A stretch of DNA of 37,220 nucleotides from an uncultured Porphyromonadaceae bacterium (lineage in GTDB: Bacteria > Bacteroidota > Bacteroidia > Bacteroidales > UBA12481). Below, piece by piece: positions 1 through 33,181 of the stretch (position 1 is its first letter; each line of letters begins with the position of its first letter). Location of the stretch: contig CAYGOU010000002.1 in assembly GCA_964351455.1 (NCBI GenBank), positions 1 through 37,220 of the forward strand. Direction: 5' to 3'. A program made the translations under genes and the position numbers. The notes under the pieces are model-generated. The model had not been told where the DNA came from and did no database searches. It saw only the letters and a list, made by a program, of their open reading frames with translations.

Positions 1-734
1 CCATACAGACAGAATCCACTCTCCAGCCTGAGGGTATCACGGGCGCCAAGGCCGATGGGCCTAATTCCATATCCGGCACCGGCATCCATCACCGCTTTCC
101 AGAGTTTCGGAGCGTCTTCATTGCGGCAATAGATTTCACATCCACCCGATCCTGTGTACCCGGTGGTCGAGAAAATCACCTCATCGATGCCGGCAAAGGG
201 AATCTGTTTGAAAGTGTAATACTCCATGCTCACAACATCCTCTTCGGTGAGCTTTTGCATAGCCTCCAGGGCAAGCGGACCCTGAATGGCCAACTGAGCG
301 GTGGAATCCGATTGATTAATCAGCTCGCTGCCAATTTCCATTCCAAGTTCGCGCGCGTGCCCGCAGCACCAATCCCAGTCCTTCTGAATGTTGGCCGCAT
401 TCACCACCAGCAGATAAGTATCACTGCTCACACGATACACCAGGAGATCATCCACGATCCCACCCTTTCCGTTGGGAAAACAGCTGTATTGAACCTTACC
501 ATCATGCAGCATGGCGACATCGTTGGTGGTCAGCTTTTGCACCAGCTCAAATGCCTTTGGTCCGCTCACCCAGAACTCTCCCATGTGTGAAACATCGAAC
601 ACCCCGAGGCGCTCACGCACCTGAAGATGCTCATCGGTAATTCCCGAATATTCTATGGGCATCATATACCCTGCAAAGGGTTCGAGCCGGGCCCCAAATT
701 CCTGGTGAAAATTGTAAAAAGGCGTGGTTTTCAT
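1..734 (-). CDS. gcvT: Glycine cleavage system aminomethyltransferase GcvT. Only the N-terminal ~244 aa are present because the 3' end runs off the window.
   Basis: Absent from the ORF track because there is no stop codon in the window. The reverse-strand ATG at 734-732 gives [58 protein letters not shown]..., then ...[14 protein letters not shown]...[13 protein letters not shown]. These are typical GcvT blocks, and the frame stays open to base 1. Confidence 0.9.
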
Positions 735-856: not shown

Positions 857-1216
857 ATGGCTTCAAACTTTACCTACGCCGACCTCTCCTATCTTGAAAG
901 CATGGCCATGGGGAGCAATGAGATGATCGTCGAAATGATCCAGATTTTCATCGACCAGTTGCCTGAATTTACCGATGGTATGACCGCCCACCTGGATAAC
1001 CGGCAATGGGCCGAACTGGGCGCCCTGGCGCACAAGGCAAAATCTTCGGTTGCGGTCATGGGAATGAACGCCCTGGCAGATGACCTGAAGGTTTTGGAAC
1101 TTAAGGCCAAGAGCGGCCTGGATACTGAACAGTATCCCCTCCTGGTATCAAAGTTCATCGAACAAGTCAGGGTAACAGGCCTTGAGCTTGGTGCCTATGC
1201 AGCCTCACTGGGCTGA
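857..1216 (+). CDS. Stand-alone histidine phosphotransfer (Hpt) domain protein, 119 aa
   Basis: ATG at 857. The protein is small and looks all-helical, with the Hpt phospho-His motif context AHKAKSSVAVMGM (H-x-x-K-[GS]). Confidence 0.8.
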   Translation: MASNFTYADLSYLESMAMGSNEMIVEMIQIFIDQLPEFTDGMTAHLDNRQWAELGALAHKAKSSVAVMGMNALADDLKVLELKAKSGLDTEQYPLLVSKFIEQVRVTGLELGAYAASLG

Positions 1217-3668: not shown

Positions 3669-5765
3669 ATGAGGCCCTATCCAAAAACCGAATTGCTGAT
3701 CGTCGATGACCGCGACGAGAACCTGTTTGCCATGGAGGCACTCCTCGAACAACCTGACATTGAGATTCTTACTGCAAGATCAGGTAATGAGGCCCTGGGC
3801 ATCCTCCTTGAACACGAGGTGGCACTGATCCTTATGGATGTTCAGATGCCCGGTATGAATGGCTTCGAAACGGCAGAACTGATCCGCGGCAGCTCACGAA
3901 CCAAGCACATTCCGATAATTTTCGTAACGGCGATCAGCAAGGAGCGCCAGAATATTTTCCAGGGTTATGAATCCGGAGCCGTTGATTACCTTTTTAAACC
4001 GGTTGAACCGGAAATCCTGAAGTCGAAAGTCAGAGTCTTTATTGACCTTCACCTTCAAAAACAGACCCTTGAAAACATCACCCACAAGCTTGAAACCACC
4101 ATTTCTGAATTGATAGAATCGAAGAGGAAGCTGAGGCAAAGCGAGGAGACCGCCCGCGAGGCATGGAAAGCCGCCGAGATCGCCAGGCATGCTGCAGAAG
4201 AGGCCAACCGCGCTAAAAGTGAGTTTCTGGCCAACATGAGCCATGAGATCCGCACGCCACTCAACGGGATCATTGGCATGGCCGACCTGGCCCTGCTTGA
4301 GAACAGCTCCCCCGACCTCCGCGACAGGATTGAAAGCATACGAACCTCGGGTGACTCGTTGCTGGAGATTTTAAATGAGATTCTGGATCTCTCGAAAATT
4401 GAAGCTGAGCGCTTCGAACTCGAGAGTATCTCCTTTTCTCCCGCCGATGTTATGGAGAAGGTGGTCAGAATGCTGGCCGTGAAAATTTCAGAAAAGAACC
4501 TTGATCTTGTTTGTGAGGTTGATCCTCACCTTCCACTGGAGGTGACCGGGGATCCCACAAGGGTCCGCCAGATTTTACTCAACCTCCTGTCCAACGCCTA
4601 TAAATTCACGAACGAAGGCTCGATAACCATCACTGCCGGCCTGATCAGAAGAACACCCGAACGGGCGGTGATTCAATTTTCGATAGCCGATACCGGAATC
4701 GGAATCGATTCGACCAAGATCAACTCCATTTTCCAGTCGTTCAGCCAAGCCGAAATTTCAACCTCAAGGGTTTTCGGCGGAACCGGCCTGGGCCTTTCGA
4801 TATCCAGAAAGCTGGTTGACCTGATGCAGGGCAGAATCTGGGTGGAGAGTCAGGCCGGAATGGGATCAACCTTCTTTTTTGAGATTCCCTTCAGCCTTAA
4901 TGAAGCACCTCCCGCAGTTGAGCGATCGAATGACTATCTCAAGTTGTCACCCGTCCTCATGCTCGAACCCTCTCCGGGAAATGGTTTCAACGCTGAGAAA
5001 CTACTGCAGTATTATGGAGTTGAGTGCGTGGTGACCAACAGCTTGCAGGACCTGAAGCATGCAAGAGTATCAGAAAAGTCCCCGTATCGTTCACTATTTA
5101 TCGACAGCCAACTTTACCAGGATGCCAGAATCCGGGAGGATGCTCCTTTAGCCCTCCTTGATGAGCTGCTGACCTTGGATGCTCCGCGGGTGGTCATGAT
5201 CACCGACAACCAGCTGGGGAGAAAGGACTCTTACATTGAAGATGGGTTTACCGCTGTTGCCATGAAACCGCTCTTTCCGAAAACCATCCGAAAGACATTT
5301 CAGGAGATCCTCACTCCGGCCAAGCTCAATGAACCCATTAAGAGACAAGATATTGTTCATACTTCGCTGGAGGATCCCTTACGCATTCTGCTGGCTGAAG
5401 ACAACCGGATCAATGCACGGCTGGCCTTTGGCTTCCTGCAGTTGAGAAACTGGAAGGTAGACCATGCTTTGAATGGCATGGAAGCGGTCAACCTATTCAG
5501 AGAAAATCCATATGATCTGATCCTGATGGACATACAAATGCCGGAGATGGATGGGTATGAAGCCACCAGGATCATCCGTAACGATGAAAACCTTTCCGGC
5601 CGCAAACCAATTCCCATTGTTGCCCTTTCGGCCCATGCCATGCGTGGCGATATCGACAAGGCCCTGAATTCGGGCATGGACGATTACATTACAAAGCCTT
5701 TCAAGCCGAGTGAATTATACGAGGTTATTCTGAAACTGACGCAATCAAAAACCGCTGACCATTGA
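3669..5765 (+). CDS. Hybrid sensor histidine kinase/response regulator (REC - coiled coil - HisKA - HATPase_c - degenerate REC - REC), cytoplasmic
   Basis: N-terminal REC: LIVDDRDEN...[13 protein letters not shown]...YLFKP. H-box: [16 protein letters not shown] box: [13 protein letters not shown] boxes: DTGIGI and [14 protein letters not shown]-terminal REC: [10 protein letters not shown]...[13 protein letters not shown]...DYITKP. Confidence 0.9.
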
Positions 5766-6100
5766 AAATACCCATAAACACCAAGGAGCTTCTTGACCGG
5801 GTTTCAGGAAACGCCGAATTTGCCAAACTGATGCTTGACACCTTCTTTGGCAACCTGGATGAACGCATAGATATTTTAAGTAAGGATCTTGAAAACCGTG
5901 ATTTCGACAATCTCGCTGATAATGTTCATAAAATGAAAGGAGTGGTCGGAAACCTGGCCTTACCACGCCCGTTCAGCATCCTGATGGATATGCACCGTGA
6001 GGCACGATTGAAGGATTACCGCAAATCAGAAAAACTACTGAGGCAACTGGAAGGTTCACTCAGGGAGGCGGCTGAATTCAACGCCACCCTGAAGTTCTAA
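5762..6100 (+). CDS. Stand-alone Hpt domain protein, 112 aa, with a TTG start overlapping the upstream kinase stop
   Basis: Hpt motif [13 protein letters not shown]. The first in-frame ATG would remove helix 1, so the TTG at 5762 (ATTGA overlap with the TGA at 5763-5765) is the likely start. Confidence 0.75.
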
Positions 6101-6119
6101 ATCTCTAAAATACGGCATT

Positions 6120-9100
6120 ATGTTTATCAACTGGCTGAAGAATAAAACGATCAACACGAAACTCCATCTGATGATCGCCATTTCACTGGTTTCTCTAATG
6201 CTTCTTGGTGCGGTTTCAAACTACCTCATCAACAGCACCAAGGTAGTAAGCATCATGCTGGTAGCACAACGCGACTACATGATGGCCTACCACGAGAGCC
6301 TCGAATTATATTACCAGTCGCTCGCTTTCCCCGGGGAGCGAGAAAAGTTTCTTAACAAAGCCATCGACCGGTTGACCAGGGCAAACCGGCAACTTGACTT
6401 TTTTGCCGGAGTCGATAGTCTGTTTCAGAACCTTTCAAGCAAGGAGATTGTTGAAGAGGCCAGAAGTATTTATGGGAGTGCGCTCAAAGACTCGAAAGAC
6501 CCCGATGGCCTGAAAAACGCCCAATTGCTAGTGGCGAGGGTAGGCCTGATCAGGAAACTCTCAAAGGAGATGTTGAACACCAGCATTGTTTCAACTGAGA
6601 TCTCGAGAAAGTATGCCTTTGAGATTCTTGAAGTTTTCAGAAAAGAGCTTATCAGTCCGGGCAGTGCAGCCCTCTCGGGCCTTAACTTGGATGAAACTCT
6701 GGCCAACATGGCCAGGCAGGAAAAGGACTACGCCGAAGATGTAAGAAACCTGGGATCCACAACGGTTACCCAACTGAGGCTGGCCATACTGGCGATCGTC
6801 GTGATTTTGGGTTTCGTGATTTTCTTGCTCTCGAAGGTGCTTTCAAGAATGATTGCACAGCCGGTTTCCCAAATCCGCGACAACCTTGAGCAGATGTCAT
6901 TGGGCCGGCTCGACCTCGAGGCAAGTTATGTTTCAAAAGACGAGGTGGGTCAGCTTGCTGCCTCTTATCGAAGCATGCAAGCCACTTTGCGCCAGCAGGC
7001 TGATCATGCCCAAAAGGTAGCCACAGGGGATTTCAGCGCCTTGCTAAACCCGAGGTCGGCCCACGACGAACTCAGCCTGGCACTGAATGAAATGACCCTG
7101 GCCCTCAGAAAAGCGGACGAGAAGAACCAGCTTGAAAACTGGGTTAAAACCAATCAGAATCAGCTAAGTCAGGAGTTACAGGGCGATCTTGACCTGGCAA
7201 GCCTCGGTCAGAAGATCACCACCCTGCTTTCAAACCAGCTTGGCGCTCATGCCTCTGCCCTGTTCTCATCCGATCAAAACGGAAAGCTGGTTTTTGTTGG
7301 AGGCTACGCCGTCAACACGGGTCAGCTGGCCGGCAGAAGCTTCAAATCGGGCGAAGGACTCCCCGGACAGGCCATGAAGGATAAAAAAATCCTCTCGGTG
7401 GATGATGTCCCTGAAGGGTACCTTGATGTTTGCAGCGGGCTTGGCAGCGCCCTGCCAAGGCATCTATATGTAGTACCCTGTATCTACAGCAATGAGACCG
7501 AAGGAGTCATTGAACTTGCCTGTCTTGAAGCCTTAGGTGAAAACAAACTCGCATACATAGGTCTGGTTGCAGAAGCCATTGCGATCGCCCTCAGGAGCTC
7601 AAAATCCAGAACCGAGCTCCAGAACCTTCTCAGGCAACAGAAAGAACTTGCCGAAGAGTTGCAGGTACAGCAGGAAGAGTTACGCCAGACCAACGAAGAA
7701 CTTCAGGTACAGCAGGAGGAATTGCGTCAGGCCAATGAAGAGCTGGAGGCCCAGACCCGCTCGCTGGAGGAGTCAAAAGCCAATCTGCAGGCTCAGCAGG
7801 AGGAATTACGGGTCACCAACGAGGAACTGGCCGAAAGAACCCGAGCCATTGAAAACCAGCGTGAGGCCCTGAGACGCAAAAATGATGAACTCGAAAGGGC
7901 GCGGCAGGAGATTGAGCAAAAAGCACGGGATCTTGAACAGACCAGCCGCTACAAATCTGAATTTCTGGCCAACATGTCTCATGAACTGCGCACCCCTTTG
8001 AACAGCATTCTGGTGCTCTCTCAGATCCTGGCCCAGAATAAGCCGGATAACCTGAATGAGAAGCAGATTAAATCAGCCCAGACCATCCACTCTTCGGGAG
8101 TGAACCTACTGTCGCTGATCAATGAAATACTAGACCTGTCGAAAATCGAGTCCGGAAGAATTGATCTGCATTCAGAAGAGATCAATCTTCAGCAGGTGGT
8201 TGAGGAACTTAAAGAAAATTTCGCTCCTCTGGCTGAAGAAAAAGGTTTGGAAATCACCTTTTCTATCGGGGAAAAGATACCTGAGATCATCTTCAACGAT
8301 CCGATGCGGCTCGGACAGATCCTTCGCAACCTGCTCTCAAATGCAGTGAAGTTCACCGAACGCGGATCGGTCAGGCTGATGGTTGCCATGCACCCCGGGA
8401 CCGGCACCCAACCAGCATCCCCGGATGGGAAGAAAAGTTGGATTTCTATTTCGATCGAAGATACCGGTATCGGGATAGCAGGTGAGAAACAGAAGGAGAT
8501 CTTTGACGCCTTTAAGCAGGCCGATGGCACCACATCGCGCAAGTTCGGGGGCACAGGACTTGGACTTGCCATTTCGCGTAATTTTGCCAGGTTGATGGGA
8601 GGAGACATCCTGCTTGAAAGTGAGCCTGGAAAAGGAAGCAGGTTCATACTGGTTTTGCCCGAAAGGATTGAGCCTCAAAAACAGGTGGCCAAAGAAGACC
8701 TGCCCCCCGTAGTAAATACCATTGAGCTGCCTGCTGATCCGGCTGTTGCCCTCGATCAACCCATGACAGACCTGGATGCCAGTCCCCGCGAAACCTATGA
8801 ACTGATCATGGATGACCGGAAACACATCAAGAAGGGAGACCCCTTTCTGCTGATCATTGAGGATGATCCGGCATTTGCCCAGGTACTTTATGACCTTGCC
8901 CATGAAAAGCACTTCAAGTGCATGGTTGCACCCAACGGGGAAACCGGACTTCACTATGCAGATTATTACGGTCCGAGTGCCATCGTCCTTGACATCGGAC
9001 TTCCGGGAATAAACGGTTGGGAGGTCATGCAGCGACTTAAGGAAAATCCCTCAACCCGCCATATTCCGGTGCATTTCATGTCGGCCAGCGACAAAAGTAT

Positions 9101-10010
9101 TGAGGCCATGAGAAAGGGAGCGATCGGCTTTCTTAAGAAACCGGTTTCGGTGGAGGAGGTCAACGAAGCTTTTGATAAGATTGAAGGGATCATTTCCAAA
9201 CCGCTCAAAAAACTACTGGTGGTCGAAGATGACCCTGCCATGCAGCACAGCATCCGCGAGCTGATTGGAGAAGACAACATCCAGATTACCACCGTATCAA
9301 AGGGCCATGACGCTCTGAAGCAGCTTGAAAAGGAAAACTTCGACTGTATGATCCTCGACCTGGGTCTTGAAGATATGAGCGGCTATGATCTGCTGCAAAA
9401 GATAGTTCGAAACAGCGAAGCGCAGCGCATGCCCATCATCATTTACACGGGCAAGGACCTGACCAGGGAGGAGGAGGAAAAGCTGCAGAAGTATTCTGAC
9501 CGAATCATCATCAAAGGGATCCGTTCGCCTGAGCGCCTTTTGGCTGAAACCACCCTGTTTCTGCACCAGGTTGAAGCCAATCTGCCCGAATCTAAACAGC
9601 AGATGCTCAGGAAAATCAGGCCCCGTGAGGATTTCCTCAGAGAAAAGGTGGTTCTGATCGTTGATGATGACATGCGCAACGTGTTTGCCCTGACCAGTCT
9701 GCTGGAGGATCATGGGGTGAAAGTATTGGTGGGTCGCAACGGAAGAGAGGGCGTTGACAAGGCGACAAGCAACAAGGTTGACCTGATCCTGATGGACATC
9801 ATGATGCCGGAGATGAACGGGTATGAAGCAATGGAGGAGCTCAGGCGCAATAGTTCATTCAGGAAACTGCCAATCATCGCCCTGACGGCAAAGGCGATGC
9901 CAGGAGACCGCGAGCGCTGTATACAGTCGGGGGCCAATGACTACCTGGCCAAACCAATCGATGCCGAGAAACTCATTTCCATGTTAAGGGTATGGCTCTA
10001 TCAGGCTTAA
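6120..10010 (+). CDS. Large hybrid sensor histidine kinase (TM - ~180-aa helical extracytoplasmic domain - TM - HAMP(s) - GAF - long E/Q-rich coiled coil - HisKA - HATPase_c - three REC domains)
   Basis: Hydrophobic segments at about aa 15-37 and 218-239. HAMP-like segment: PVSQIRDNLEQMSLGRLDL...DEVGQLAASYRSM. H-box: [15 protein letters not shown] box: NLLSNAVKFT. G boxes: DTGIGI and GGTGLGLAISRNF. The three receivers read LLIIEDDP..VLDIGLPGINGW..FLKKP, LLVVEDDP..ILDLGLEDMSGY..IIIKG and VLIVDDDM..LMDIMMPEMNGY..YLAKP. Confidence 0.9.
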   Translation: MFINWLKNKTINTKLHLMIAISLVSLMLLGAVSNYLINSTKVVSIMLVAQRDYMMAYHESLELYYQSLAFPGEREKFLNKAIDRLTRANRQLDFFAGVDSLFQNLSSKEIVEEARSIYGSALKDSKDPDGLKNAQLLVARVGLIRKLSKEMLNTSIVSTEISRKYAFEILEVFRKELISPGSAALSGLNLDETLANMARQEKDYAEDVRNLGSTTVTQLRLAILAIVVILGFVIFLLSKVLSRMIAQPVSQIRDNLEQMSLGRLDLEASYVSKDEVGQLAASYRSMQATLRQQADHAQKVATGDFSALLNPRSAHDELSLALNEMTLALRKADEKNQLENWVKTNQNQLSQELQGDLDLASLGQKITTLLSNQLGAHASALFSSDQNGKLVFVGGYAVNTGQLAGRSFKSGEGLPGQAMKDKKILSVDDVPEGYLDVCSGLGSALPRHLYVVPCIYSNETEGVIELACLEALGENKLAYIGLVAEAIAIALRSSKSRTELQNLLRQQKELAEELQVQQEELRQTNEELQVQQEELRQANEELEAQTRSLEESKANLQAQQEELRVTNEELAERTRAIENQREALRRKNDELERARQEIEQKARDLEQTSRYKSEFLANMSHELRTPLNSILVLSQILAQNKPDNLNEKQIKSAQTIHSSGVNLLSLINEILDLSKIESGRIDLHSEEINLQQVVEELKENFAPLAEEKGLEITFSIGEKIPEIIFNDPMRLGQILRNLLSNAVKFTERGSVRLMVAMHPGTGTQPASPDGKKSWISISIEDTGIGIAGEKQKEIFDAFKQADGTTSRKFGGTGLGLAISRNFARLMGGDILLESEPGKGSRFILVLPERIEPQKQVAKEDLPPVVNTIELPADPAVALDQPMTDLDASPRETYELIMDDRKHIKKGDPFLLIIEDDPAFAQVLYDLAHEKHFKCMVAPNGETGLHYADYYGPSAIVLDIGLPGINGWEVMQRLKENPSTRHIPVHFMSASDKSIEAMRKGAIGFLKKPVSVEEVNEAFDKIEGIISKPLKKLLVVEDDPAMQHSIRELIGEDNIQITTVSKGHDALKQLEKENFDCMILDLGLEDMSGYDLLQKIVRNSEAQRMPIIIYTGKDLTREEEEKLQKYSDRIIIKGIRSPERLLAETTLFLHQVEANLPESKQQMLRKIRPREDFLREKVVLIVDDDMRNVFALTSLLEDHGVKVLVGRNGREGVDKATSNKVDLILMDIMMPEMNGYEAMEELRRNSSFRKLPIIALTAKAMPGDRERCIQSGANDYLAKPIDAEKLISMLRVWLYQA
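7659..7868 (+). repeat. In-frame 42-nt (14-codon) periodic array inside the kinase coiled coil. Units 1 and 2 are near-identical tandem copies and unit 4 is a third close copy.
   Basis: 7659-7700 encodes LQVQQEELRQTNEE, 7701-7742 LQVQQEELRQANEE, 7743-7784 LEAQTRSLEESKAN, 7785-7826 LQAQQEELRVTNEE, and 7827-7868 LAERTRAIENQREA. Leu occupies positions 1 and 8 of every unit. Confidence 0.85.
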
Positions 10011-10843
10011 AAGCGACAGAGGAGAACCACGATCTTCAGGACCTTGAAATAAGGCTGCTGCTGGAGGCGATTTATCTTAAATACGGATATGACTTCAGGG
10101 ACTATGGAAAGGCACATGCTAAAAGGAGAATCCTGCACAGAATGGCCCTCTCGGATATTCCCAATGTCACCCGCCTGCAGGAGCATCTGCTGTACGACGA
10201 ATCCTTTTTCAAGACCTTTCTCCAGGATCTCTCTATCAATACCACTGAGATGTTCAGGGATCCCGATTTTTTTAAACTCATTCGCGAAGTGGTGGTTCCG
10301 ATTTTAAAGACCTACCCCTTTCTTAAGATCTGGCATGCGGGATGTTCAACCGGAGAGGAGGTTTATTCGATGGCCATCCTGTTGAAGGAGGAGAGTTTGC
10401 TGAACCGCTGCCAGATCTATGCAACCGATTTCAATCCGATGGTGTTGCAGAAGGCACGTGAGGCAATCTATCCCATATCCCTGATGAAGGAATTCACGGC
10501 CAATTATATAAAATCAGGTGGCAAGACCTCCTTTGCTGATTATTACAACGCAAAGTATGACTCGGTCATCATGAAAAAGCCACTGAAAGAAAACATTGTA
10601 TTTGCCGACCACAATCTGGTGACCGACAGTGTATTCGGAGAGATGAACCTGGTTATTTGTCGCAACACCTTGATCTATTTTAACAAGGAACTGCAAGATA
10701 AGGTCATAGGATTGTTCGCCGAGAGCCTGCCTCCGGGTGGCTACCTGTGCCTGGGATCCAAGGAGAGCCTGACCTTCTCAAAGCATCTGCCACTTTTTGA
10801 TACGGTGGATGCGAAATGGAAGATATATCGTAAGAAATACTAA
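9992..10843 (+). CDS. cheR: CheR-type protein-glutamate O-methyltransferase
   Basis: The N-terminal helical domain (LLLEAIYLKYGYDFRDY), TEMFRDPDFF, and SAM site IWHAGCSTGEEVYSMAILL are all typical of CheR. The ATG at 9992 overlaps the kinase 3' end by 19 nt. Confidence 0.9.
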   Translation: MALSGLKATEENHDLQDLEIRLLLEAIYLKYGYDFRDYGKAHAKRRILHRMALSDIPNVTRLQEHLLYDESFFKTFLQDLSINTTEMFRDPDFFKLIREVVVPILKTYPFLKIWHAGCSTGEEVYSMAILLKEESLLNRCQIYATDFNPMVLQKAREAIYPISLMKEFTANYIKSGGKTSFADYYNAKYDSVIMKKPLKENIVFADHNLVTDSVFGEMNLVICRNTLIYFNKELQDKVIGLFAESLPPGGYLCLGSKESLTFSKHLPLFDTVDAKWKIYRKKY

Positions 10844-11438
10844 GTCAAGGGACAAGGTGAGCAGAAAGAACCAAAAGAAGTATCATGCAGTGGTGATGGG
10901 TGCCTCGGCCGGCGGATTGGATGTCCTTTCGATGATCCTTCCCGCACTTCGCGCCGAACTGCCCGTCCCGGTCATGGTGGTGCTGCACATCAGTCCCCAT
11001 TCTGATTCCTTTCTGGTTACATACCTTGACCAGATGAGTAAGGTTAAGGTTGTTGAAGCAGCCGACAAGGCCATGATGGAGCCAGGCAAGGTATATTTTG
11101 CCCCTCCGGATTATCACCTTATGGCTGAGCGGGACGGAAGTCTCTCGTTGAGCAATGAGGAGAAGGTCAACTACAGCAGACCAAGCATAGATGTTCTGTT
11201 TGAAACCGCCTTGTGGGTATTCGGGAGCGGACTGATCGGTGTCTTACTCACGGGTGCCAACTGGGACGGAGCCAAGGGGATGGAGTTGATACACAAAAAA
11301 GGGGGCTACACCATCATTCAGGATCCGGCTACGGCATCCATGCCAAGGATGCCGGAAGCTGCCATGGAGAAATTCATGCCCGATGCAATCTTACGGGCAG
11401 AGGATATCGGACAGGCGATTAACAAGCTCCTGTTATAA
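10809..11438 (+). CDS. cheB: CheB-type protein-glutamate methylesterase/glutamine deamidase, catalytic domain only (no receiver domain)
   Basis: Nucleophile motif VVMGASAGG, His motif VVLHISPH, and Asp motif LTGANWDGAKG...GGYTIIQD. The start is ambiguous among TTG 10797, ATG 10809 and GTG 10857 (13 nt after the cheR stop). All three precede the first catalytic strand. Confidence 0.85.
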   Translation: MRNGRYIVRNTKSRDKVSRKNQKKYHAVVMGASAGGLDVLSMILPALRAELPVPVMVVLHISPHSDSFLVTYLDQMSKVKVVEAADKAMMEPGKVYFAPPDYHLMAERDGSLSLSNEEKVNYSRPSIDVLFETALWVFGSGLIGVLLTGANWDGAKGMELIHKKGGYTIIQDPATASMPRMPEAAMEKFMPDAILRAEDIGQAINKLLL

Positions 11439-19055: not shown

Positions 19056-21782
19056 CTATAGGGATTTTGCCACCCGGAACTCCAGCCGGATCAGTTTTTT
19101 GGCAAGTATCCTCAGTTTGCTCCTCCTCCTGGGAATCTCACCGATTATAGATTCAAGGTGTTCGACCTGGCAGCCATTCAGCAGGACATTCACTGGATGA
19201 TCGACCTGAGTCTTGTACAGACTTAGCGCTTCGGCATCGGCGTTGTTCCATGATCTGTTGGCCCGGCATACCAGGAGGGTAAGCTGTCCCGATTTCAGAA
19301 GACTCGCGGGATATTCGTTCAGAAGCAGCGATGGCAGTTCAACCAGGATGAATTGATAGCCCTTAAGTACCACCGTGAAGTTTCGCAGCAGGTCGTTCAG
19401 GTTCTTGACCCCCATAAAATTTTCAGGCACCTCATATTCATAATCCCAGGCGGGTTTATCTGGCAGGTTCTGTCCAAGCATTGATCCCGCAGGATCATGG
19501 GGTGCCGAATCGAGCGGCTTTATATACAGAACCTTGATCTTCGATTGTCTTAGCTTCACGGCCAGTTTTGATGCAAGAAAGGTTTTGCCTTCGTTCTGCC
19601 GGGTACTGGCGATAAAAATCAGGAATGGCAATTCACCCCTTGAACGCTGGTTGTATTCCTCCAGCTTAATGCGCTGGGTCATGAGATCCGTCAGTCTTGA
19701 GACGATAAGATCATAATTGATTGCATGATCGGGCCATTCAGGTACTTTCGGAAAAGCACCGAACAGTTTCAAACCGGTACGCTGGGAGGTACGTTCGGGC
19801 ATCTTAAGGGTTCCGTCAAAGAATTCAAGCAGTATGATCAGTGCTCCAGCCATTCCCAGTCCGGCGATGAAAGCTGCCAGGATCAGGTACATGCGCTTTG
19901 ATGGATTGGGCTTTAGCGGATAAACCGGTTCATCGATCACCTGGAGGTTAGACTGCTCAACATTTTTCTGCTTTGTAATACTCAGGTTGTAATTGTGGAG
20001 GTGGTTAAGATACTCCTCTTCAGCAAGGTTCATCTGCCGCTCAAGCACATTGAGTTTACTTCCAACCGGAGCAAAGGTGTCATAAGCCTCCAGGAACTCC
20101 TTTTTCCGGTTTCCCAGCACCTTATACCGTGCTGTACTCTGTTCTACCTCAATCACCTTCTCAAGCCATTGAGTGAGCAGTTCCTGTCGGTTCATCCCTG
20201 CTGTTGAGAAGCTGGCCACATAAGCCGACTCAATGGCTCTGCTCAACCTGCCCTTTAGTTGGGCCTCTTCCAATTTGAGCCGTGTCAGCTCTTCCGGATC
20301 GGCATCGCCCTGGATTTCAGCCATAGCAAGCCTCACGGTTAAGTCTCTGAGGTTTTGCCTGACCTCCATGATCGAAGCATTCTGAAGGTTCATCCTTTCC
20401 CGTTCGTCCATGGTTTGCTCAATTGACTGAAGAGCAGCTTTCGCAGCAGAGAGGCTTCCAAGCTCAGCGGTATAATCCCTGTCGAGCACCTCTTTTTGTT
20501 CAGCAATGAACTTGGTTTGTTCATTGTAATTGATGATCCGGTTTTCCATCCTGAAGCGCAGCTCCTCCTGCTCGAGGCTGTCGAGAAGGCTTTTGGCCAG
20601 CTCCATCCGGTCGCGGAAATAATCAGAAACAATCAGTGTCTGGGAGGTTGTGATGGTCTGGTTCTTTTCAAAAAAGACCTCCGTCATAATACGGAGGGTA
20701 TTGACACAGACGGCAGGATCGGTTGATTCGTAAGTCAGCCTGATGTAGTCAGAACTCTGAATTCGTTGAACCCGGATCGAGGAGATCTTTGAGACACTGT
20801 AAAAGGGATTCGATGACTGCAGGATTCGGAAAATCTCGTTTGACTGGTTACGGCTCTTGTAAGTTTTAAGGTTTTCATAGGTTTTCTGCCAGGCGCCCCT
20901 TTTCTCAAGGATTACGGTCTGGAAAGTCTGGTCGAAGTTTCTTGCGATGGAGTCCATTTTTCTGGAGGGATCCTGAGCCAGGTAATCTGAAGCCACGGGA
21001 TCAACCTCAACTGTCGCAGTTTGTTCACCGACCGGGCTGTTGACAGGCAATGATACCGGGGTCTCCCGAATCACAAGGCTGTCGACAAGGTAGCGTTCTC
21101 TGACCTCCCCAACGATGAGGCGCTGTCCACCCTGTAGTTGTTCGAGGTCTGAACGGTTCAGCCTGATAAGCTCGTCAACTGAAACATCATTCATACGGGC
21201 AATCAGGGCAGGATAATCGCCCGATTTGACCCTGTAATACTTAGGAGTAACGCGAAACTTCTCAATCTGAAGGTTAACGGTATCATACCTGATGCTTAAA
21301 ACCTCCTCCTGAGAGGCGGATGCCGGCTGAGACTCCGGCATGCTTGAATCGACCTCGGTGGCCGGTTGCGATTGAACGCTCACTGCTTCTCCAGGCCTGA
21401 CCACCAGGTCGGTCACCGCTCTGGGGAGTTCTTCAAGCAGGCTGTTTCGTGTCTCCTCCCTGCAAATGCCGATGTCAGGCTGTTCAAGCATGAGATGCTG
21501 GGCCATGAGCCTGAGTGCGGTTTCCTCCTGGGCATCCCTGCTTTTGATGAGGTTGATCAGGTTGTCAAACTTTGCATTGGTAGCAAAGAGGTTAAATCCC
21601 GAATTGGCACCGGTTTCAATGTTGTATCCGGTGGCGATACCGGTGTATATGGTGGTCTCTGTGGTATATGATCGGGGTTGCCGGCGGGTCATAACCATGA
21701 CAATGACCGCCATGAGAAGGCCAACACCCAGAATCAGCCAAACATTCTTTAAAAGTAGTCTTATGAAATAGACCAGGTTCAT
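19056..21782 (-). CDS. Polysaccharide co-polymerase (Wzz/Wzc-like) with an inserted periplasmic LysM domain and a degenerate C-terminal BY-kinase-like P-loop domain
   Basis: TM1 spans aa 14-31. LysM reads YYRVKSGDYPALIARMNDVSVDELIRLNRSDLEQLQGGQRLIVG (aa 182-225). A long coiled coil follows, then a GNVR-like LQVIDEPVYPLKPNPSKR plus TM2 (aa 631-653). The Walker-A-like motif is IASTRQNEGKTFL. There is no C-terminal Tyr cluster. Confidence 0.75.
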   Translation of the reverse strand: MNLVYFIRLLLKNVWLILGVGLLMAVIVMVMTRRQPRSYTTETTIYTGIATGYNIETGANSGFNLFATNAKFDNLINLIKSRDAQEETALRLMAQHLMLEQPDIGICREETRNSLLEELPRAVTDLVVRPGEAVSVQSQPATEVDSSMPESQPASASQEEVLSIRYDTVNLQIEKFRVTPKYYRVKSGDYPALIARMNDVSVDELIRLNRSDLEQLQGGQRLIVGEVRERYLVDSLVIRETPVSLPVNSPVGEQTATVEVDPVASDYLAQDPSRKMDSIARNFDQTFQTVILEKRGAWQKTYENLKTYKSRNQSNEIFRILQSSNPFYSVSKISSIRVQRIQSSDYIRLTYESTDPAVCVNTLRIMTEVFFEKNQTITTSQTLIVSDYFRDRMELAKSLLDSLEQEELRFRMENRIINYNEQTKFIAEQKEVLDRDYTAELGSLSAAKAALQSIEQTMDERERMNLQNASIMEVRQNLRDLTVRLAMAEIQGDADPEELTRLKLEEAQLKGRLSRAIESAYVASFSTAGMNRQELLTQWLEKVIEVEQSTARYKVLGNRKKEFLEAYDTFAPVGSKLNVLERQMNLAEEEYLNHLHNYNLSITKQKNVEQSNLQVIDEPVYPLKPNPSKRMYLILAAFIAGLGMAGALIILLEFFDGTLKMPERTSQRTGLKLFGAFPKVPEWPDHAINYDLIVSRLTDLMTQRIKLEEYNQRSRGELPFLIFIASTRQNEGKTFLASKLAVKLRQSKIKVLYIKPLDSAPHDPAGSMLGQNLPDKPAWDYEYEVPENFMGVKNLNDLLRNFTVVLKGYQFILVELPSLLLNEYPASLLKSGQLTLLVCRANRSWNNADAEALSLYKTQVDHPVNVLLNGCQVEHLESIIGEIPRRRSKLRILAKKLIRLEFRVAKSL

Positions 21783-22540
21783 TATTTGGCTATTGATAAG
21801 CTGTTCAATTCAGTGCCAACCAGTTCACCCATTAGCTGCCAGGCTTCACGGAAATCCCTTCTGACCTCTTCGAACTGTACCTGTGAGTTGGTGGTTAGCT
21901 CCACCACCCTGGCAAATTGCTCGATGGTGATATCGGCTGTTTGATATGCTCGCTGGGCCCATTCATAGTTGGTCTCCTGAGCTGTTTTGTGGTTGCTGAG
22001 AATGGGAATCATCCGTTCGAGGTAAAGCAACTGATTGTATAGTTTTATCACCTCATTGGTGACCAAATTCTTCACTTCATCCATTTTGAATTCTTCAAAC
22101 TTAAGCTGCTCCCTGGCAATTTTGATTTTCCGGCTCTGGTCAAGTGCATCAAAAAGAGACAGGTTGATCCTGGTGCCAAAATTAAATCTGTTGGCCATGG
22201 TAAAATCCCTGTCGAGGGGAGTGCCATCCGGAGCCAGGATGAAGAAATCCACGGTACCGTAACGGTAATCCGCAGAGGCAGTGATGTTGCGTGACCAGTC
22301 AAATTTCTGGGTCTTCAGCTGGTATTCCCGGATTCGGATCAGGGATTCCTGCTGGTCAAGCAAGGGCGAATGTGTTAGCGCTTCATCAATGAGTTCGCCC
22401 AGGGGAGGCAGATTAGATTTGAAATCTTTCAGCGCCTGCGGGTCGAGAGTCTGTGACCTTATCTGTGAGTCGATCCCTGCAAGGAAAGAAACCAACAGAA
22501 TTAATTTCAGGCAATGTTGACAGATAATCCGCTTTCTCAT
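21782..22540 (-). CDS. Secreted TolC/OEP-like protein of half normal size (single repeat, 252 aa)
   Basis: Signal-peptide-like N-terminus ([22 protein letters not shown]). LGELIDEALTHSPLLDQQESLIRIREYQLK resembles the N-terminal OEP repeat motif. A beta-like segment (NITASADYRYGT) is followed by long helices. Starts and stops overlap with both neighbouring genes. Confidence 0.45.
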   Translation of the reverse strand: MRKRIICQHCLKLILLVSFLAGIDSQIRSQTLDPQALKDFKSNLPPLGELIDEALTHSPLLDQQESLIRIREYQLKTQKFDWSRNITASADYRYGTVDFFILAPDGTPLDRDFTMANRFNFGTRINLSLFDALDQSRKIKIAREQLKFEEFKMDEVKNLVTNEVIKLYNQLLYLERMIPILSNHKTAQETNYEWAQRAYQTADITIEQFARVVELTTNSQVQFEEVRRDFREAWQLMGELVGTELNSLSIAK

Positions 22541-23721
22541 ACATCCTCTTTTTGCATGAAGGCTGTAAAGGTTCTGAGTATGATGATCATATCCTTCCAG
22601 AATGAGTAGTTCCGAGCATATTCGTTGTCGAGCGCCTTTCTCTCCTCATTTGACATATCAGACTTTCCCCTCTTGCTCACCTGCCATAAACCGGTTATGC
22701 CAGCCGGTGCGAGGAACCTTTCGGTCCATGAATCAGAGGTAAGCAATTCGGCCTCGTAAAGCGGAACGGGACGATTGCCTACAATCGACATTTCGCCCCT
22801 GAGAACATTGAAGAGTTGCGGCAATTCATCAATGCTGGTCTTTCGGATTAAACGCCCCACCTTGGTTACCCGCGGGTCATTTTTGATCTTATTGAAAGTC
22901 TTGCCAAGCTTTTGTCGCTTGTACTGGAGATACTGCCTTTCACAAACTTCGTGCTCACGGATGTAAAGCAGGGTTGAACAGGGTTTTCCGAGCCTTGAAC
23001 ATTCAGGGCATTCTTCGTAAAGGGCATCCTCTTCCTTGTCTTTCTCAGCGTATTGGTTGAGGTGTTTGAGCTCCTTCAGACGTGCATCGGCGCCTGTGAA
23101 CATCGAGCGAAACTTAAAAAACGGGAAAATGGTATATCCCGCTCCAACGCGCTTGGCTGCGTAGAATACCTTTCCCTTTGATTCTATTCTAATTGCAGCC
23201 GCCACAATTAATAGCAGAGGTGACAACATCACAAGGGCTGCAGAGGCAAATAAAATATCAAAAATCCGCTTTTCAAGCGGAATACGCACCTTTTCCTGTT
23301 TGGATTCAAGAATGGAGATAACCGATTGACTCCGGCGAAATTTCATCAGGAAATCTGTCCTTATCCTGAATTTCACCATATCCAGCGGTTTCCTGATCAG
23401 ATCATCCACTCCTGCCTTGATTGCCCGCATGCGCTCCTCCCGGTCGCTACCGGCATCCACCAGGATAAAAACTGCCAACTGGTTGACGAACTTCTGCCTG
23501 AATTCTTCATAAAGGGCATATCCCGACATGCCCGGCAGAATCAGTTCTGAGACAATCACATCGGGCCGCTCATCGGCATCCAGCCGGCTGATGGCCAAAT
23601 ATCCATTTTCAGCACTGGAAACTTTAAGCAGAGGATCTGTCGACAGAGATTCTAATACCTGGGAATCGCCTCCCACATATAAAACCGATATCGTTGCTTG
23701 CTGGTCTTCACTCATTGCCAT
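22537..23721 (-). CDS. Receiver-like domain fused to a priming phosphoglycosyltransferase (bacterial sugar transferase, WbaP/PglC family)
   Basis: REC-like aa 10-125: [14 protein letters not shown]...[12 protein letters not shown] domain: [34 protein letters not shown]...FKFRSM...[37 protein letters not shown]. Confidence 0.85.
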
Positions 23722-23725
23722 AAAA

Positions 23726-24103
23726 TCATGAAATTCGACACTTCAGGAGAATCTCGATTTTCAGCAACAACTCTTCGGGATTAAATGGTTTAATCATAAA
23801 GTCCATTGCACCCATTCTCAGGCACTGAACCCGTTCGGGACTTGAATCAACCCCCGACAGCATCATAACGGGGATTGCGCTGAAAAAACCGCTGGCCTTC
23901 ACCTGCTTTAGGAACTCAAATCCATCCATGGAGGGCATTTCAAGGTCAACGATCATCAGGTCGGGCATGCTCCCCCCCTGCAACCAGTTCAACCCTTCCA
24001 AACCATTGCCCATGGCAGCCACCTCGTAGGTCTGACTAAGAAACTTCTCAAGAAGACTCCGAATGGTTATTTCATCGTCAACAATAAGTATTTTCTTTCT
24101 CAT
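23726..24103 (-). CDS. Single-domain CheY-like response regulator (125 aa)
   Basis: MRKKILIVDDEITIR..., acceptor motif LMIVDLEMPSMDG, MMLSG, and FMIKP, so all canonical receiver residues are present. I chose the ATG at 24103 because a -7 box lies inside the longer track ORF (start 24163). Confidence 0.85.
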   Translation of the reverse strand: MRKKILIVDDEITIRSLLEKFLSQTYEVAAMGNGLEGLNWLQGGSMPDLMIVDLEMPSMDGFEFLKQVKASGFFSAIPVMMLSGVDSSPERVQCLRMGAMDFMIKPFNPEELLLKIEILLKCRIS

Positions 24104-24168
24104 TATTAAAAGATTACAGGAACTTAGGCTCTGTCTGATCCAGACAGGATAAAAATAGCACAATTCAG

Positions 24169-32543: not shown

Positions 32544-32551
32544 TAAATTTG
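32544..32551 (+). promoter_or_regulatory. Candidate -7 box TAAATTTG for the hypothetical / DUF3822-like / rsmD unit
   Basis: Exact TAnnTTTG match 28 nt upstream of the ATG at 32579. The track's TTG start at 32549 lies inside this box. Confidence 0.35.
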
Positions 32552-32578
32552 CACACAAACTTAAACAAATCCATACTG

Positions 32579-33181
32579 ATGAAAACGGTCAGATACATCT
32601 TTCAGGTTATACTTCTCGTGGCCATCGTAGTTCTGGTATACTTCATTTACACCGGTGTCATGAAGCCGATTAACTTTGAGCATGAAAAGAAAGCAAGATA
32701 CGAACAGGTGATCCAGCGCCTGAAGGAGATCCGGACCGCCCAGGTGGCATACCGCTCGATTTACGGCAAGTATACCGGAAGCTTTGACACCCTGATCCAT
32801 TTTGTCAAGGCAGATTCTTTCCCGGTTGAATACGCTGAAGGATCCCTTGATGACTCCCTGGCCGTTGCCATGGGCCTGATCGTCAGGATGACCTATTATG
32901 TTCCGGTTAGAGACTCCCTTTTCCCCAGCACCTATCCGATTGATTCCATTCGCTTTGTGCCCGGTACCGCAGGCATTCCGTTTACCCTGAAGGCTGGAAC
33001 CATCGAAACAGCATCAAAGGTTGTTGTTCAGGTATTTGAGGCAGGAGCATTGAACTTTGATATCCTGAAAGGCCTTGATCGTCAGCTGATCGTTAATCTC
33101 AACGACAAAATGAAAGCATATGCCGGACTGAGGGTTGGCAACATTGACGAGGCCAACAACAACGCCGGTAACTGGGAATAG
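32579..33181 (+). CDS. Hypothetical membrane-anchored protein (200 aa from the ATG at 32579)
   Basis: A long ORF with one N-terminal hydrophobic helix (IFQVILLVAIVVLVYFIY). I recognise no catalytic motif. Confidence 0.5.
   Translation: MKTVRYIFQVILLVAIVVLVYFIYTGVMKPINFEHEKKARYEQVIQRLKEIRTAQVAYRSIYGKYTGSFDTLIHFVKADSFPVEYAEGSLDDSLAVAMGLIVRMTYYVPVRDSLFPSTYPIDSIRFVPGTAGIPFTLKAGTIETASKVVVQVFEAGALNFDILKGLDRQLIVNLNDKMKAYAGLRVGNIDEANNNAGNWE

Follow-up and report, generated by a model that had tools for sequence, protein, structure and literature searches.

The window studied here, a stretch of 37,220 nucleotides from an uncultured Porphyromonadaceae bacterium, carries genes for a CheR-type methyltransferase and a CheB-type methylesterase in one run with histidine kinase and phosphotransfer genes, which raises the question of what the two enzymes act upon. 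The original prediction was that they act on a sensor histidine kinase and not on a chemoreceptor. The conserved linkage to the kinase and the operons devoid of MCP, CheW and CheA, described below, argue that the pair is dedicated to a histidine-kinase pathway and not to a chemoreceptor array, and a long helix of the larger kinase (HK2) is proposed as the probable substrate.

The operon and its two adaptation enzymes

Five genes of the same strand overlap or nearly abut each other between positions 3669 and 11438 (Table 1). The TTG start of the Hpt gene lies in a 4-nt overlap with the HK1 stop, a 19-nt gap follows the HK1/Hpt block before the start of HK2, and the CheR start overlaps the end of HK2 by 19 nt. 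Both the ORF coordinates and these junctions agree with the co-oriented chain that had been proposed, and Pfam agrees with the domain architectures proposed for all five genes. Concerning the last junction, CheB had been said to abut or overlap CheR. The CheB reading frame, which is open from TTG 10797 (10797-11438, 213 aa), does overlap CheR, but the homologues are 187–197 aa long, so the likely start is GTG 10857, located 13 nt past the CheR stop and giving a protein of 193 aa.

Table 1. Features of the window discussed in the text, with positions counted from its first nucleotide.
Feature	Coordinates	Strand	Basis
Second stand-alone Hpt gene, 119 aa	857..1216	+	Pfam Hpt E=9e-9
HK1: REC - HisKA - HATPase_c - degenerate (pseudo) REC - REC, 698 aa	3669..5765	+	Pfam, REC residue check
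Stand-alone Hpt phosphotransfer protein, 112 aa, TTG start	5762..6100	+	Pfam Hpt E=2e-8
HK2: TM - ~180-aa periplasmic region - TM - HAMP - GAF - long coiled coil - HisKA (His621) - HATPase_c - REC x3, 1296 aa	6120..10010	+	Pfam, TM-like segments
Unbroken helix (predicted), HK2 aa 474-638, joining the last helix of GAF to DHp helix 1	7539..8033	+	AlphaFold2 model m8a5e01998d4b
Candidate methyl-accepting heptad repeats, HK2 aa 517-570: QQEELRQTNEELQV QQEELRQANEELEA ... QQEELRVTNEELAE	7668..7829	+	Motif distribution
CheR-type SAM-dependent protein-glutamate O-methyltransferase, 283 aa	9992..10843	+	Pfam CheR_N + CheR E=8e-44; structure alignment
CheB-type methylesterase/deamidase catalytic domain (likely start), 193 aa	10857..11438	+	Pfam CheB_methylest only, E=5e-53
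Candidate output: complete single-domain response regulator (23726-24163) and degenerate-REC-fused initiating sugar transferase (22537-23721)	22537..24163	-	Pfam, REC residue check

The Pfam matches of HK1 were two Response_reg domains, HisKA and HATPase_c. In the REC residue check its middle REC lacked the acidic pocket and the phospho-Asp, and it is for this reason taken as a pseudo-receiver; all five remaining REC domains of HK1 and HK2 are complete. HK2 matched HAMP, GAF, HisKA, HATPase_c and three Response_reg domains, with TM-like segments at aa 14-37 and 214-246. Its homologues (37–62% identical) have CHASE3, dCache or HAMP sensors. With CHASE3-GAF-HK-REC3 proteins the identity was 42–46% across 74–80% of the length, although CHASE3 was not detected in HK2, which has HAMP instead.

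The signatures that had been noted for CheR (AGCSTGEEVYS) and CheB (GASAGG, LHISPH, WDGAKG) are present and align to catalytic residues of solved structures. In CheB, S37, H64 and D157 (numbering of the 213-aa ORF) align to 3sft, 1chd and 1a2o, while in CheR the SAM-binding and FR(D/E)/IYF motifs are kept in the alignment to 5ftw and 1af7. The N-terminal domain of CheR retains the basic helix KAHAKRRILHR, so an acidic helical substrate would fit this enzyme. No REC was found in CheB, where Pfam gave CheB_methylest alone. Judged by sequence similarity, the CheR and CheB proteins of the related loci form a tight orthologous group: both are 43–73% identical across phyla, and CheR is 51–73% identical across phyla within the family while aligning to the solved chemotaxis CheRs with E=1e-21 to 1e-31.

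The predicted long helix of HK2 and its heptad repeats

In the AlphaFold2 model the predicted HK2 helix covers fragment residues 140-304 (165 residues), with a pLDDT of about 90 in the repeat region. In the helix of HK2-family kinases, Leu or Ile recurs at every seventh residue between positions -87 and -10, counted from the H-box, and the indels among HK2 homologues in the helix are multiples of 7. HK2 itself displays Glu and Gln pairs at seven-residue spacing on this helix, the Glu pairs being 519/520, 526/527, 533/534, 540/541, 561/562 and 568/569, and the Gln pairs 517/518, 531/532 and 559/560. The family heptad repeat can be written QQEELRxxNEEL, with one Leu per seven residues and a heptad-fixed distance to the phospho-His. 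The Glu-Glu pair is invariant at -82/-81 and nearly so at -75/-74 from the H-box, the spacing to which is kept in heptad units. The motif was present in all 42 family kinases collected by whole-protein similarity and in none of 77 other hybrid kinases.

A comparison with the canonical chemosensory adaptation of E. coli Tar and Tsr seems pertinent, since the same CheR and CheB families are found in the window with their catalytic residues intact. The TM-sensor-TM-HAMP front end of HK2 is chemoreceptor-like, and the candidate helix is, as the methylation helices of MCPs, a long one with Glu-Glu and Gln pairs every seven residues on its exposed face. The consensus of the MCP methylation sites is [ASTG][ASTG]-x-x-[EQ][EQ]-x-x-[ASTG][ASTG], and the classical pattern is E-E-x-x-[AS]-[AST]. 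HK2-family sites (E-E-L-R-x-[TAS]-N) match a single small residue of this consensus, so that HK2 fits it only in part, as E-E-x-x-x-[TAS]. The HK2 helix also runs straight into the DHp histidine and is predicted to form a parallel two-helix coiled coil, whereas the MCP is an antiparallel four-helix bundle. Unlike the canonical system, the window has a CheB without a phosphorylatable receiver, and neither CheW, CheA nor an MCP signalling hairpin was found in it.

The same kind of heptad occurs in a family built differently, the CheB-CheR fusion kinases (CheB-CheR-PAS_10-...-HisKA/HWE, annotated as 'two-component system CheB/CheR fusion protein'). Like the window, they tie CheB and CheR to a histidine kinase with no MCP, but they differ in that kinase and enzymes form one polypeptide instead of coming from separate genes, that the repeat is placed between PAS_10-type domains and not between GAF and DHp, and that their CheR and CheB are only 33% identical to those of the window. 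NEEL-type heptads were present in 139 of 147 diverse fusion kinases, collected with a query from which the motif had been left out, versus the same 0/77 of other hybrid kinases, and the motif-bearing fusion kinases have 2–7 consecutive xNEELQS heptads each. Their sites (E-E-L-Q-S-[AST]-N) fit the C-terminal half of the receptor consensus. Our literature search found no characterised CheB-CheR fusion kinase. We see an even chance that the NEEL/QQEEL helix is a portable methyl-accepting module, by which CheR/CheB adaptation would act in both families directly on histidine kinases, with no receptors, CheW or CheA.

Conservation of the linkage and the alternatives to HK2 methylation

A coiled-coil profile scan of genome contigs gave at least 534 relatives, of which the best 80 were analysed. 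These best 80 belong to Bacteroidales, Desulfobacterota, Firmicutes, Spirochaetes, Acidobacteria, Alphaproteobacteria and Pseudomonas. CheR and then CheB were directly downstream of the kinase in 62 of the 70 evaluable loci among them, and of the remainder 3 had CheR only and 5 had neither, while outside the evaluable set 2 had CheR followed by the contig end and 8 were too short. CheR after the kinase was thus seen in 67 of the 80 loci, with 51–73% identity to the window CheR. It should be noted that motif-derived patterns served to collect these 80 loci, so the invariance of the motif there is partly by construction. The unbiased support comes from the comparison of the 42 family kinases with the 77 others and from a reverse test, in which the three contexts picked through CheR alone had, in every case, a motif-bearing GAF kinase immediately upstream. 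A conserved linkage of cheR and cheB to such kinases, about which the original prediction had asked, is found both in the evaluable loci and in the contexts picked through CheR.

The partner of the large kinase also recurs. The N-terminal REC of HK1 (aa 6-155) shares 52–62% identity with the REC of REC-GGDEF genes located 3' of CheB in other phyla, and HK1 aa 1-410 share 35–37% with the Pseudomonas REC-HK at the cfcD position; this REC is the conserved fourth component of the cassette and probably the receiver for HK2. The cassette, in which the large kinase is joined by CheR, by CheB and by its own REC partner, is conserved across phyla, and the window locus is not unique. The Hpt gene occupies the same position in loci L001 and L005. 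The second Hpt gene has a counterpart at the equivalent place in the syntenic locus L001, and possibly belongs to the same phosphorelay as the cassette.

Could CheR and CheB be ordinary chemotaxis enzymes, serving receptors and CheA/CheW encoded elsewhere and placed near the kinase only incidentally? We consider this very unlikely. The absence of CheA, CheW and MCP from the window, stated in the original prediction, was upheld: the MCPsignal, CheW and CheA-specific Pfam families had no match among the scanned window ORFs of at least 80 aa, and neither did an MCP-hairpin regular expression in the window. The same expression had no match in 83 of 84 related loci (L001-L084), its sole match lying far upstream in its locus, and CheW and H-kinase_dim had no Pfam match in the window or in the called genes of L001-L004 and L085-L089. 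Bacteroidales are generally non-flagellated, and the kinase linkage is kept, with overlapping reading frames, in at least seven phylum-level groups. Pfam and NCBIfam do assign both enzymes to the general CheR and CheB families, but both missed the NCBIfam cut-offs for the chemotaxis forms (92 vs 435 bits for CheR and 144 vs 342 bits for CheB). Although a receiver-less CheB occurs in bona fide chemotaxis classes such as F3 (PMC9239204), the orthologous CheR/CheB pair of P. putida has no role in chemotaxis, according to PMC4951495 where it cites Garcia-Fontana 2013.

It is hardly credible that the two proteins are non-catalytic scaffolds or decaying remnants of a lost chemosensory cluster. The loci with CheR but no CheB near the kinase (L044, L050, L051) and the split kinase of L088/L089 could be read in that sense, but the CheB triad and the CheR SAM-binding and catalytic motifs are intact, lengths are uniform, no frameshifts were seen, and the cross-phylum identity mentioned above implies purifying selection.

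A more serious alternative, though still an unlikely one, is that CheR and CheB act on another protein (HK1, a receiver domain, Hpt or an unlinked protein) and that the Glu-rich heptad helix is merely structural. In five loci (L025, L040, L047, L070, L082) the motif is retained, in three of them completely, while the available flanks contain no CheR/CheB, so the motif may be a structural signalling helix independent of the enzymes. The loci with CheR only and the partial fit of the HK2 motif to the receptor consensus point in the same direction, and a second REC-containing protein, always part of the cassette, is a possible target. On the other hand, the non-REC part of this partner varies (HK-REC, HK or GGDEF), which leaves REC as the sole constant candidate, and Glu-Glu repeats are absent from the HK1 linker. 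The fusion kinases have the same heptads while sharing only a covalently attached CheB and CheR. As to the kinases with no adjacent enzymes, the paralogous motif kinases of L017 and L049 share one CheR/CheB pair per operon, and therefore such kinases may be served in trans.

Proposed mechanism, Pseudomonas relatives and implications

Considering all this, we infer, with a probability of about 0.6, that the locus represents, in Bacteroidales, a widespread cassette of four parts in which CheR and CheB reversibly methylate the HK2 helix and so tune the kinase. The four parts would be the membrane sensor hybrid kinase HK2, a dedicated CheR, a dedicated receiver-less CheB and a cognate REC with variable output, the latter being here the HK1 kinase together with Hpt, and elsewhere a diguanylate cyclase. 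HK2 would sense a periplasmic or GAF-bound cue and pass the signal on from GAF, along the single long helix, to His621, the phospho-acceptor. This helix is envisaged as a weak coiled coil in which each heptad has one Leu, the second core position is taken by polar Asn/Gln, and the Glu-Glu pairs are exposed. CheR would methylate its glutamates, and CheB would take the methyl groups off and perhaps deamidate the neighbouring Gln pairs. The change in charge would alter the stability of the helix pair and reset the kinase output, giving a two-component kinase an adaptation or memory like that of chemoreceptors. Phosphoryl groups may flow from the HK2 receivers and Hpt to the HK1 N-terminal receiver and onward, surface-polysaccharide or biofilm functions being the likely destination. 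The response regulator and sugar transferase pair of Table 1 heads an exopolysaccharide locus, followed by Wzy/Wzx/Wzz genes in the same order as in L001, and it is a candidate for the cassette output, by inference only.

The cassette family has been studied genetically only in Pseudomonas, where the kinase drives c-di-GMP and biofilm. In the cfcABCDE cluster of P. putida KT2440 (CfcA hybrid kinase, CfcB/CfcC as CheR/CheB, CfcD REC-kinase and output CfcR), CfcA is needed for biofilm phenotypes and for an active CfcR, which is a diguanylate cyclase (PMC4951495; bioRxiv 10.1101/2024.11.25.625174), and BmsA of P. alkylphenolica is a further example, as cited in PMC8175716. The P. capeferrum orthologue of HK2 has 1155 aa, its His496 being CfcA H496 (PMC4951495). 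The window and cfcABCDE share an orthologous core, namely a kinase made up of GAF, a Glu-rich coiled coil, HisKA/HATPase and three REC domains, then directly after it CheR and a CheB lacking a receiver, and in addition a REC-fused partner; the Pseudomonas CheR and CheB are 54–57% and 43–49% identical, respectively, to those of the window. The window kinase differs from CfcA in that HAMP and an unassigned periplasmic region replace CHASE3 and in one extra 14-residue repeat unit, and its REC-HK-pseudoREC-REC partner is upstream with a dedicated Hpt, while the Pseudomonas partner is a downstream REC-HK. The scanned window ORFs contained no GGDEF or EAL domains, which is weak evidence as CfcR is unlinked in P. 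putida too; a biofilm or surface-polymer link in both systems is plausible. The other cfc gene mutants kept the crinkly phenotype (an unpublished remark in PMC4951495), so CheR/CheB are not essential for P. putida signalling. The original prediction was aware of no defined substrate, signal or output for neighbourhoods of this kind: as to the output this no longer stands, in view of CfcA acting through CfcR on biofilm, but the role of CheR/CheB in these clusters is, as then, undefined.

Methylation-based adaptation marks the textbook divide between chemotaxis pathways and ordinary two-component systems, and the cassette brings chemotaxis-type enzymes together with a sensor kinase, both in Bacteroidales of gut and sediment, which are non-flagellated, and in numerous other phyla. 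The literature search found no report of biochemical methylation of any histidine kinase, nor of methyl esters on such a kinase helix that are made by CheR and removed by CheB. What is new here is the heptad-repeat helix as a candidate methylation target, together with the same heptads in the fusion kinases. Twelve glutamates are named on a defined HK2 helix, an orthologue is genetically tractable in P. putida, and the shared motif leads one to expect this chemistry in thousands of CheB-CheR fusion kinases as well. If the proposal is true, it would involve at least 534 GTDB species genomes with operon-linked cassettes and about 12,000 50%-identity clusters of fusion kinases, and a large class of two-component systems, those of the non-motile Bacteroidales among them, would generally possess a methylation-based memory. 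If confirmed, kinase output would depend on stimulus history, and both the signalling of these systems and their control of biofilm or polysaccharide would have to be modelled differently.

Gene content of the operon and its surroundings

The five genes and their junctions were located by their ORF coordinates as the original prediction had described them (see the table), so that finding is real. The domain calls of all five were confirmed with Pfam. CheB contains the methylesterase domain only; alignment to solved CheB structures places its Ser, His and Asp at the catalytic triad. The window CheR retains the motifs for SAM binding and catalysis seen in solved CheRs. Judging from the sequence, the most likely start of CheB is the GTG at 10857, which would yield a protein of 193 aa beginning 13 nt past the CheR stop (homologues, 187–197 aa). 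HK2 displays two TM-like segments on either side of a periplasmic region of ~180 residues, for which no matching family was found in Pfam, while its coiled coil gave only sub-threshold generic coiled-coil matches. Among the scanned ORFs of the window, none matched the MCPsignal, CheW or CheA-specific families of Pfam. With NCBIfam, no operon protein matched above a curated cut-off, and both CheR and CheB stayed below the chemotaxis-specific ones. Under their cut-offs, HK2 aa 492–986 (coiled coil plus kinase core) scored 357 bits with the cyanobacterial hormogonium kinase HrmK (cut-off 725 bits), and the HK1 N-terminus 296 bits with the EpsF response-regulator model (cut-off 900). A promoter and terminator scan gave signal at or below shuffle expectation and was uninformative.

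Features of the operon and its surroundings
Feature	Position	Strand	Remarks
Putative ORF	255–590	+	no Pfam match at E≤0.001
Second stand-alone Hpt	857–1216	+	119 aa; beyond rlmL/AAA_28/pnuC relative to operon
pnuC, AAA_28 gene, rlmL	upstream of operon	-
HK1	3669–5765	+
Hpt	5762–6100	+	overlaps HK1 by 4 nt
HK2	6120–10010	+	19-nt gap after Hpt
CheR	9992–10843	+	overlaps HK2 by 19 nt
CheB ORF	open 10797 to 11438	+
guaA, metallo-beta-lactamase-fold gene, rpsA	downstream of operon	-
Exopolysaccharide locus	beyond guaA/rpsA stretch		Wzy, Wzx, LysM-Wzz-type protein, OEP protein
908-aa polysaccharide-locus protein	19056–21782	-	Wzz + LysM + GNVR + weak CbiA/ParA-like nucleotide-binding region
Initiating sugar transferase (Bac_transf) fused to degenerate receiver, and adjoining complete single-domain response regulator	22537–24163	-
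Nucleotide-sugar genes			strand opposite to exopolysaccharide locus
Putative ORF	32549–33181	+	no Pfam match at E≤0.001
Putative ORF	36362–36673	-	no Pfam match at E≤0.001

The three putative ORFs lacking a Pfam match encode 103–210 aa. The second Hpt has a counterpart at the equivalent place (2608–2967) of the syntenic locus L001. The entire arrangement is syntenic in the 5.38-Mb Bacteroidales-type genome GCA_942493265.1, where the kinase is 60% identical. A Wzx/Wzy-type polysaccharide locus opens with the transferase and the response regulator, and the phosphorelay may have its output there; a residue check of the receiver fused to the transferase found GG..E..D..K where DD..D..T..K is expected. 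The LysM insertion is unusual in a chain-length or tyrosine-kinase-type protein such as the 908-aa one.

Conservation of the kinase-CheR-CheB cassette

Whole-protein searches with HK2 yielded a group of close Bacteroidales relatives (58–62% identity) and a large family (37–46%) with the same cytoplasmic architecture and CHASE3, dCache or HAMP sensors. The four neighbourhoods examined all had the order kinase, CheR, receiver-less CheB, with a REC-HK-REC or REC-GGDEF gene adjoining. When one genome per GTDB species was scanned for relatives with a profile built from the coiled coil, at least 534 were found, the best 80 belonging to Bacteroidales, Lentimicrobiaceae, Marinilabiliales, Desulfobacterales, Desulfovibrio, Desulfosporosinus, Spirochaetales, Acidobacteria, Alphaproteobacteria and many Pseudomonas. 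The linkage of cheR and cheB to such kinases, a check proposed with the original prediction, is conserved: both enzymes lay 3′ of the kinase in 62 of these best 80 loci, and CheR was followed by the contig end in two more. The contig was too short for judgement in eight, CheR only was present in three, and neither enzyme in five. This conserved linkage lends good support to the core of that prediction, namely that CheR and CheB work for a kinase and not for a receptor.

The CheRs of the cassettes share 51–73% identity (median 57%) with the window CheR, and the CheBs 43–59% with the window CheB, so that both make a tight orthologous group; the window CheR is much less similar to the solved chemotaxis CheRs. 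In a reverse test starting from CheR alone, a family kinase (an HK2 relative with the GAF-coiled coil-HK-REC3 core) was directly upstream in three of three contexts, which had been picked by the length of their contigs. A regular expression for the MCP hairpin matched in one of 84 related loci, far upstream of the kinase. In two independent samples (L088, 3723–7997; L089, 2207–6481), two genes divide the kinase between them, the break lying within the coiled coil; the first encodes a dCache-HAMP-GAF-repeat part ending in '...KKAQDEIS*' and the second the kinase core. A receptor-like polypeptide is thereby detached from its kinase, and an Hpt and a SpoIIAA-like gene lie upstream.

A residue check of all operon receivers counted five complete REC domains (N-terminal and C-terminal in HK1, three in HK2) and bore out the predicted pseudo-receiver, the middle domain of HK1 being degenerate. 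According to operon parsing and BLAST, what stays constant in the partner of the cassette is one particular receiver domain, coupled to outputs that vary. The N-terminal REC of HK1 is 52–62% identical to the REC of REC-GGDEF proteins encoded 3′ of CheB in Desulfobacterota, Spirochaetes, Firmicutes and Acidobacteria, and HK1 residues 1–410 are 35–37% identical to the product of the Pseudomonas REC-HK gene 3′ of CheB. From these identities we take HK1 to be the response regulator cognate to HK2, its output domain being a kinase. The Hpt would serve the HK2-HK1 relay, whose direction of transfer we infer.

The Pseudomonas loci retrieved belong to the cfc type of cluster. In P. capeferrum, the kinase has 1155 aa and its phospho-His at 496; the same His of P. 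putida CfcA has been mutated and is needed by the diguanylate cyclase CfcR (PMC4951495). The CheR and CheB of that P. putida cluster are described in the same paper as having no part in chemotaxis. CfcA, described as CHASE-TM-GAF-kinase-REC3, acts with CfcR under HsbA control (2025 preprint, 10.1101/2024.11.25.625174), and BmsA-type genes have the same kinase-CheR-CheB-hybrid kinase context (PMC8175716). The name CheR1 belongs to the wsp cluster (PMC6363813) and is not used here for the cfc CheR. With these relatives, the kind of cluster is already known, and its kinase output has been studied in one genus. The remark that the crinkly phenotype is kept in mutants of other cfc genes (PMC4951495) fits a modulatory role of CheR/CheB, but also the absence of any role.

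The Glu-Glu heptad helix of HK2 as candidate substrate

Between GAF and H-box, every family kinase carries heptad repeats of the type QQEELRxxNEELEEQ. The motif [EQ]E[LM]xxx[NS][EQ]EL was matched by 42 of 42 family members, a set obtained from whole-protein similarity, and by one of 78 other hybrid kinases, which was a CheB-CheR fusion kinase. In an alignment of 83 sequences anchored at the H-box, Leu or Ile occupies each seventh residue from -87 to -10, and the Glu-Glu pair shows no variation at -82/-81, hardly any at -75/-74, and predominates at -54/-53 and -47/-46; the invariance of the motif in this alignment is partly by construction, because the sequences were retrieved with motif-derived patterns. 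The coiled coils of homologues differ in length by multiples of seven, and the window HK2 and its closest relatives have an extra 14-residue unit. The Glu pairs of HK2 are 519/520, 526/527, 533/534, 540/541, 561/562 and 568/569. AlphaFold2 predicts residues 474–638 as one unbroken helix, with pLDDT ~90 over the repeats; it joins the last helix of GAF to DHp helix 1, which bears His621.

The same repeat occurs in CheB-CheR fusion kinases. A 664-aa CheB-CheR-PAS fragment of one of them (P0112), cut before the repeats, was searched against 1.84 billion representative proteins and gave 11,997 clusters at E≤1e-30. Among the best 150 of these clusters, 147 were long enough to be judged, and 139 of them showed 2–7 consecutive heptads immediately C-terminal to the matched region (for example, LQSANEELQSxNEELETSKEELQSxNEEL). 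The repeat is shared by two differently built kinase families that have CheB and CheR in common, which is the chief reason for regarding it as the element recognised by CheR and CheB; their methylation target is inferred. The classical MCP methylation site follows the pattern E-E-x-x-[AS]-[AST]; the fusion-kinase E-E-L-Q-S-[AST]-N fits its C-terminal half, whereas the HK2-type E-E-L-R-x-[TAS]-N fits only partly. The literature searched yielded no report of a histidine kinase methylated by CheR and none of the motif strings in print.

Alternatively, the helix could be purely structural, as the repeats are kept in the five loci devoid of adjacent CheR/CheB (compared for motif decay, they are intact in three and partly degenerate in two, too small a sample to tell), to which three loci with CheR only may be added. 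CheR/CheB acting in trans might serve these kinases, a possibility raised by two operons (L017, L049) with two paralogous motif-bearing kinases (~1465 and ~1300 aa) and a single REC-HK-REC, CheR and CheB each, where one pair may serve several kinases. A variant operon found in four of the five loci (L025, L040, L047, L070) combines a motif-bearing kinase and REC-HK-REC without CheR/CheB, the repeats being intact in three of the four; the first three also contain a single REC and a sodium:solute-symporter-family gene 5′ of the kinase, while the L070 contig starts inside the kinase.

The kinase C-terminus (window 9960–10010) is strikingly conserved in all related loci as '...KLLSLLRVWLY' plus 0–2 residues ('FSLIRVWLPQLERI' in Pseudomonas) and bears a superficial likeness to the aromatic C-terminal tether of chemoreceptors. 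A role as a receptor-pentapeptide-like tether for CheR/CheB is not claimed: the tail extends the last receiver helix without a break, loci devoid of CheR/CheB retain it, and its Tyr is lost in Pseudomonas.

Proposed mechanism and output

The front end of HK2 (TM-sensor-TM-HAMP) is like that of chemoreceptors and is followed by GAF. In the core of the repeat helix, each heptad supplies only one hydrophobic position, the other being taken by Asn/Gln. A dimer of this helix would be marginally stable and would expose the Glu pairs. Charge taken away by CheR through methyl esterification would be given back by CheB, which might also make new sites from Gln pairs. The helices would pack differently as a result, and the balance of kinase and phosphatase activity at His621 would move. 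As CheB lacks a receiver, any feedback would, speculatively, depend either on conformation-dependent substrate availability or on docking to the three receivers of HK2.

As to the output of the cassette, surface-polymer control is our best guess, since the neighbouring polysaccharide locus, which is syntenic, includes a response regulator of its own together with an initiating transferase fused to a pseudo-receiver, and since other members of the cassette are tied to c-di-GMP or biofilm.

Since the Cfc/Bms type of cluster, of which the locus is a Bacteroidales representative, is a known kind, the locus does not constitute a new category. What it contributes is a specific candidate for a methyl-accepting helix, one that is widely shared and open to direct testing.
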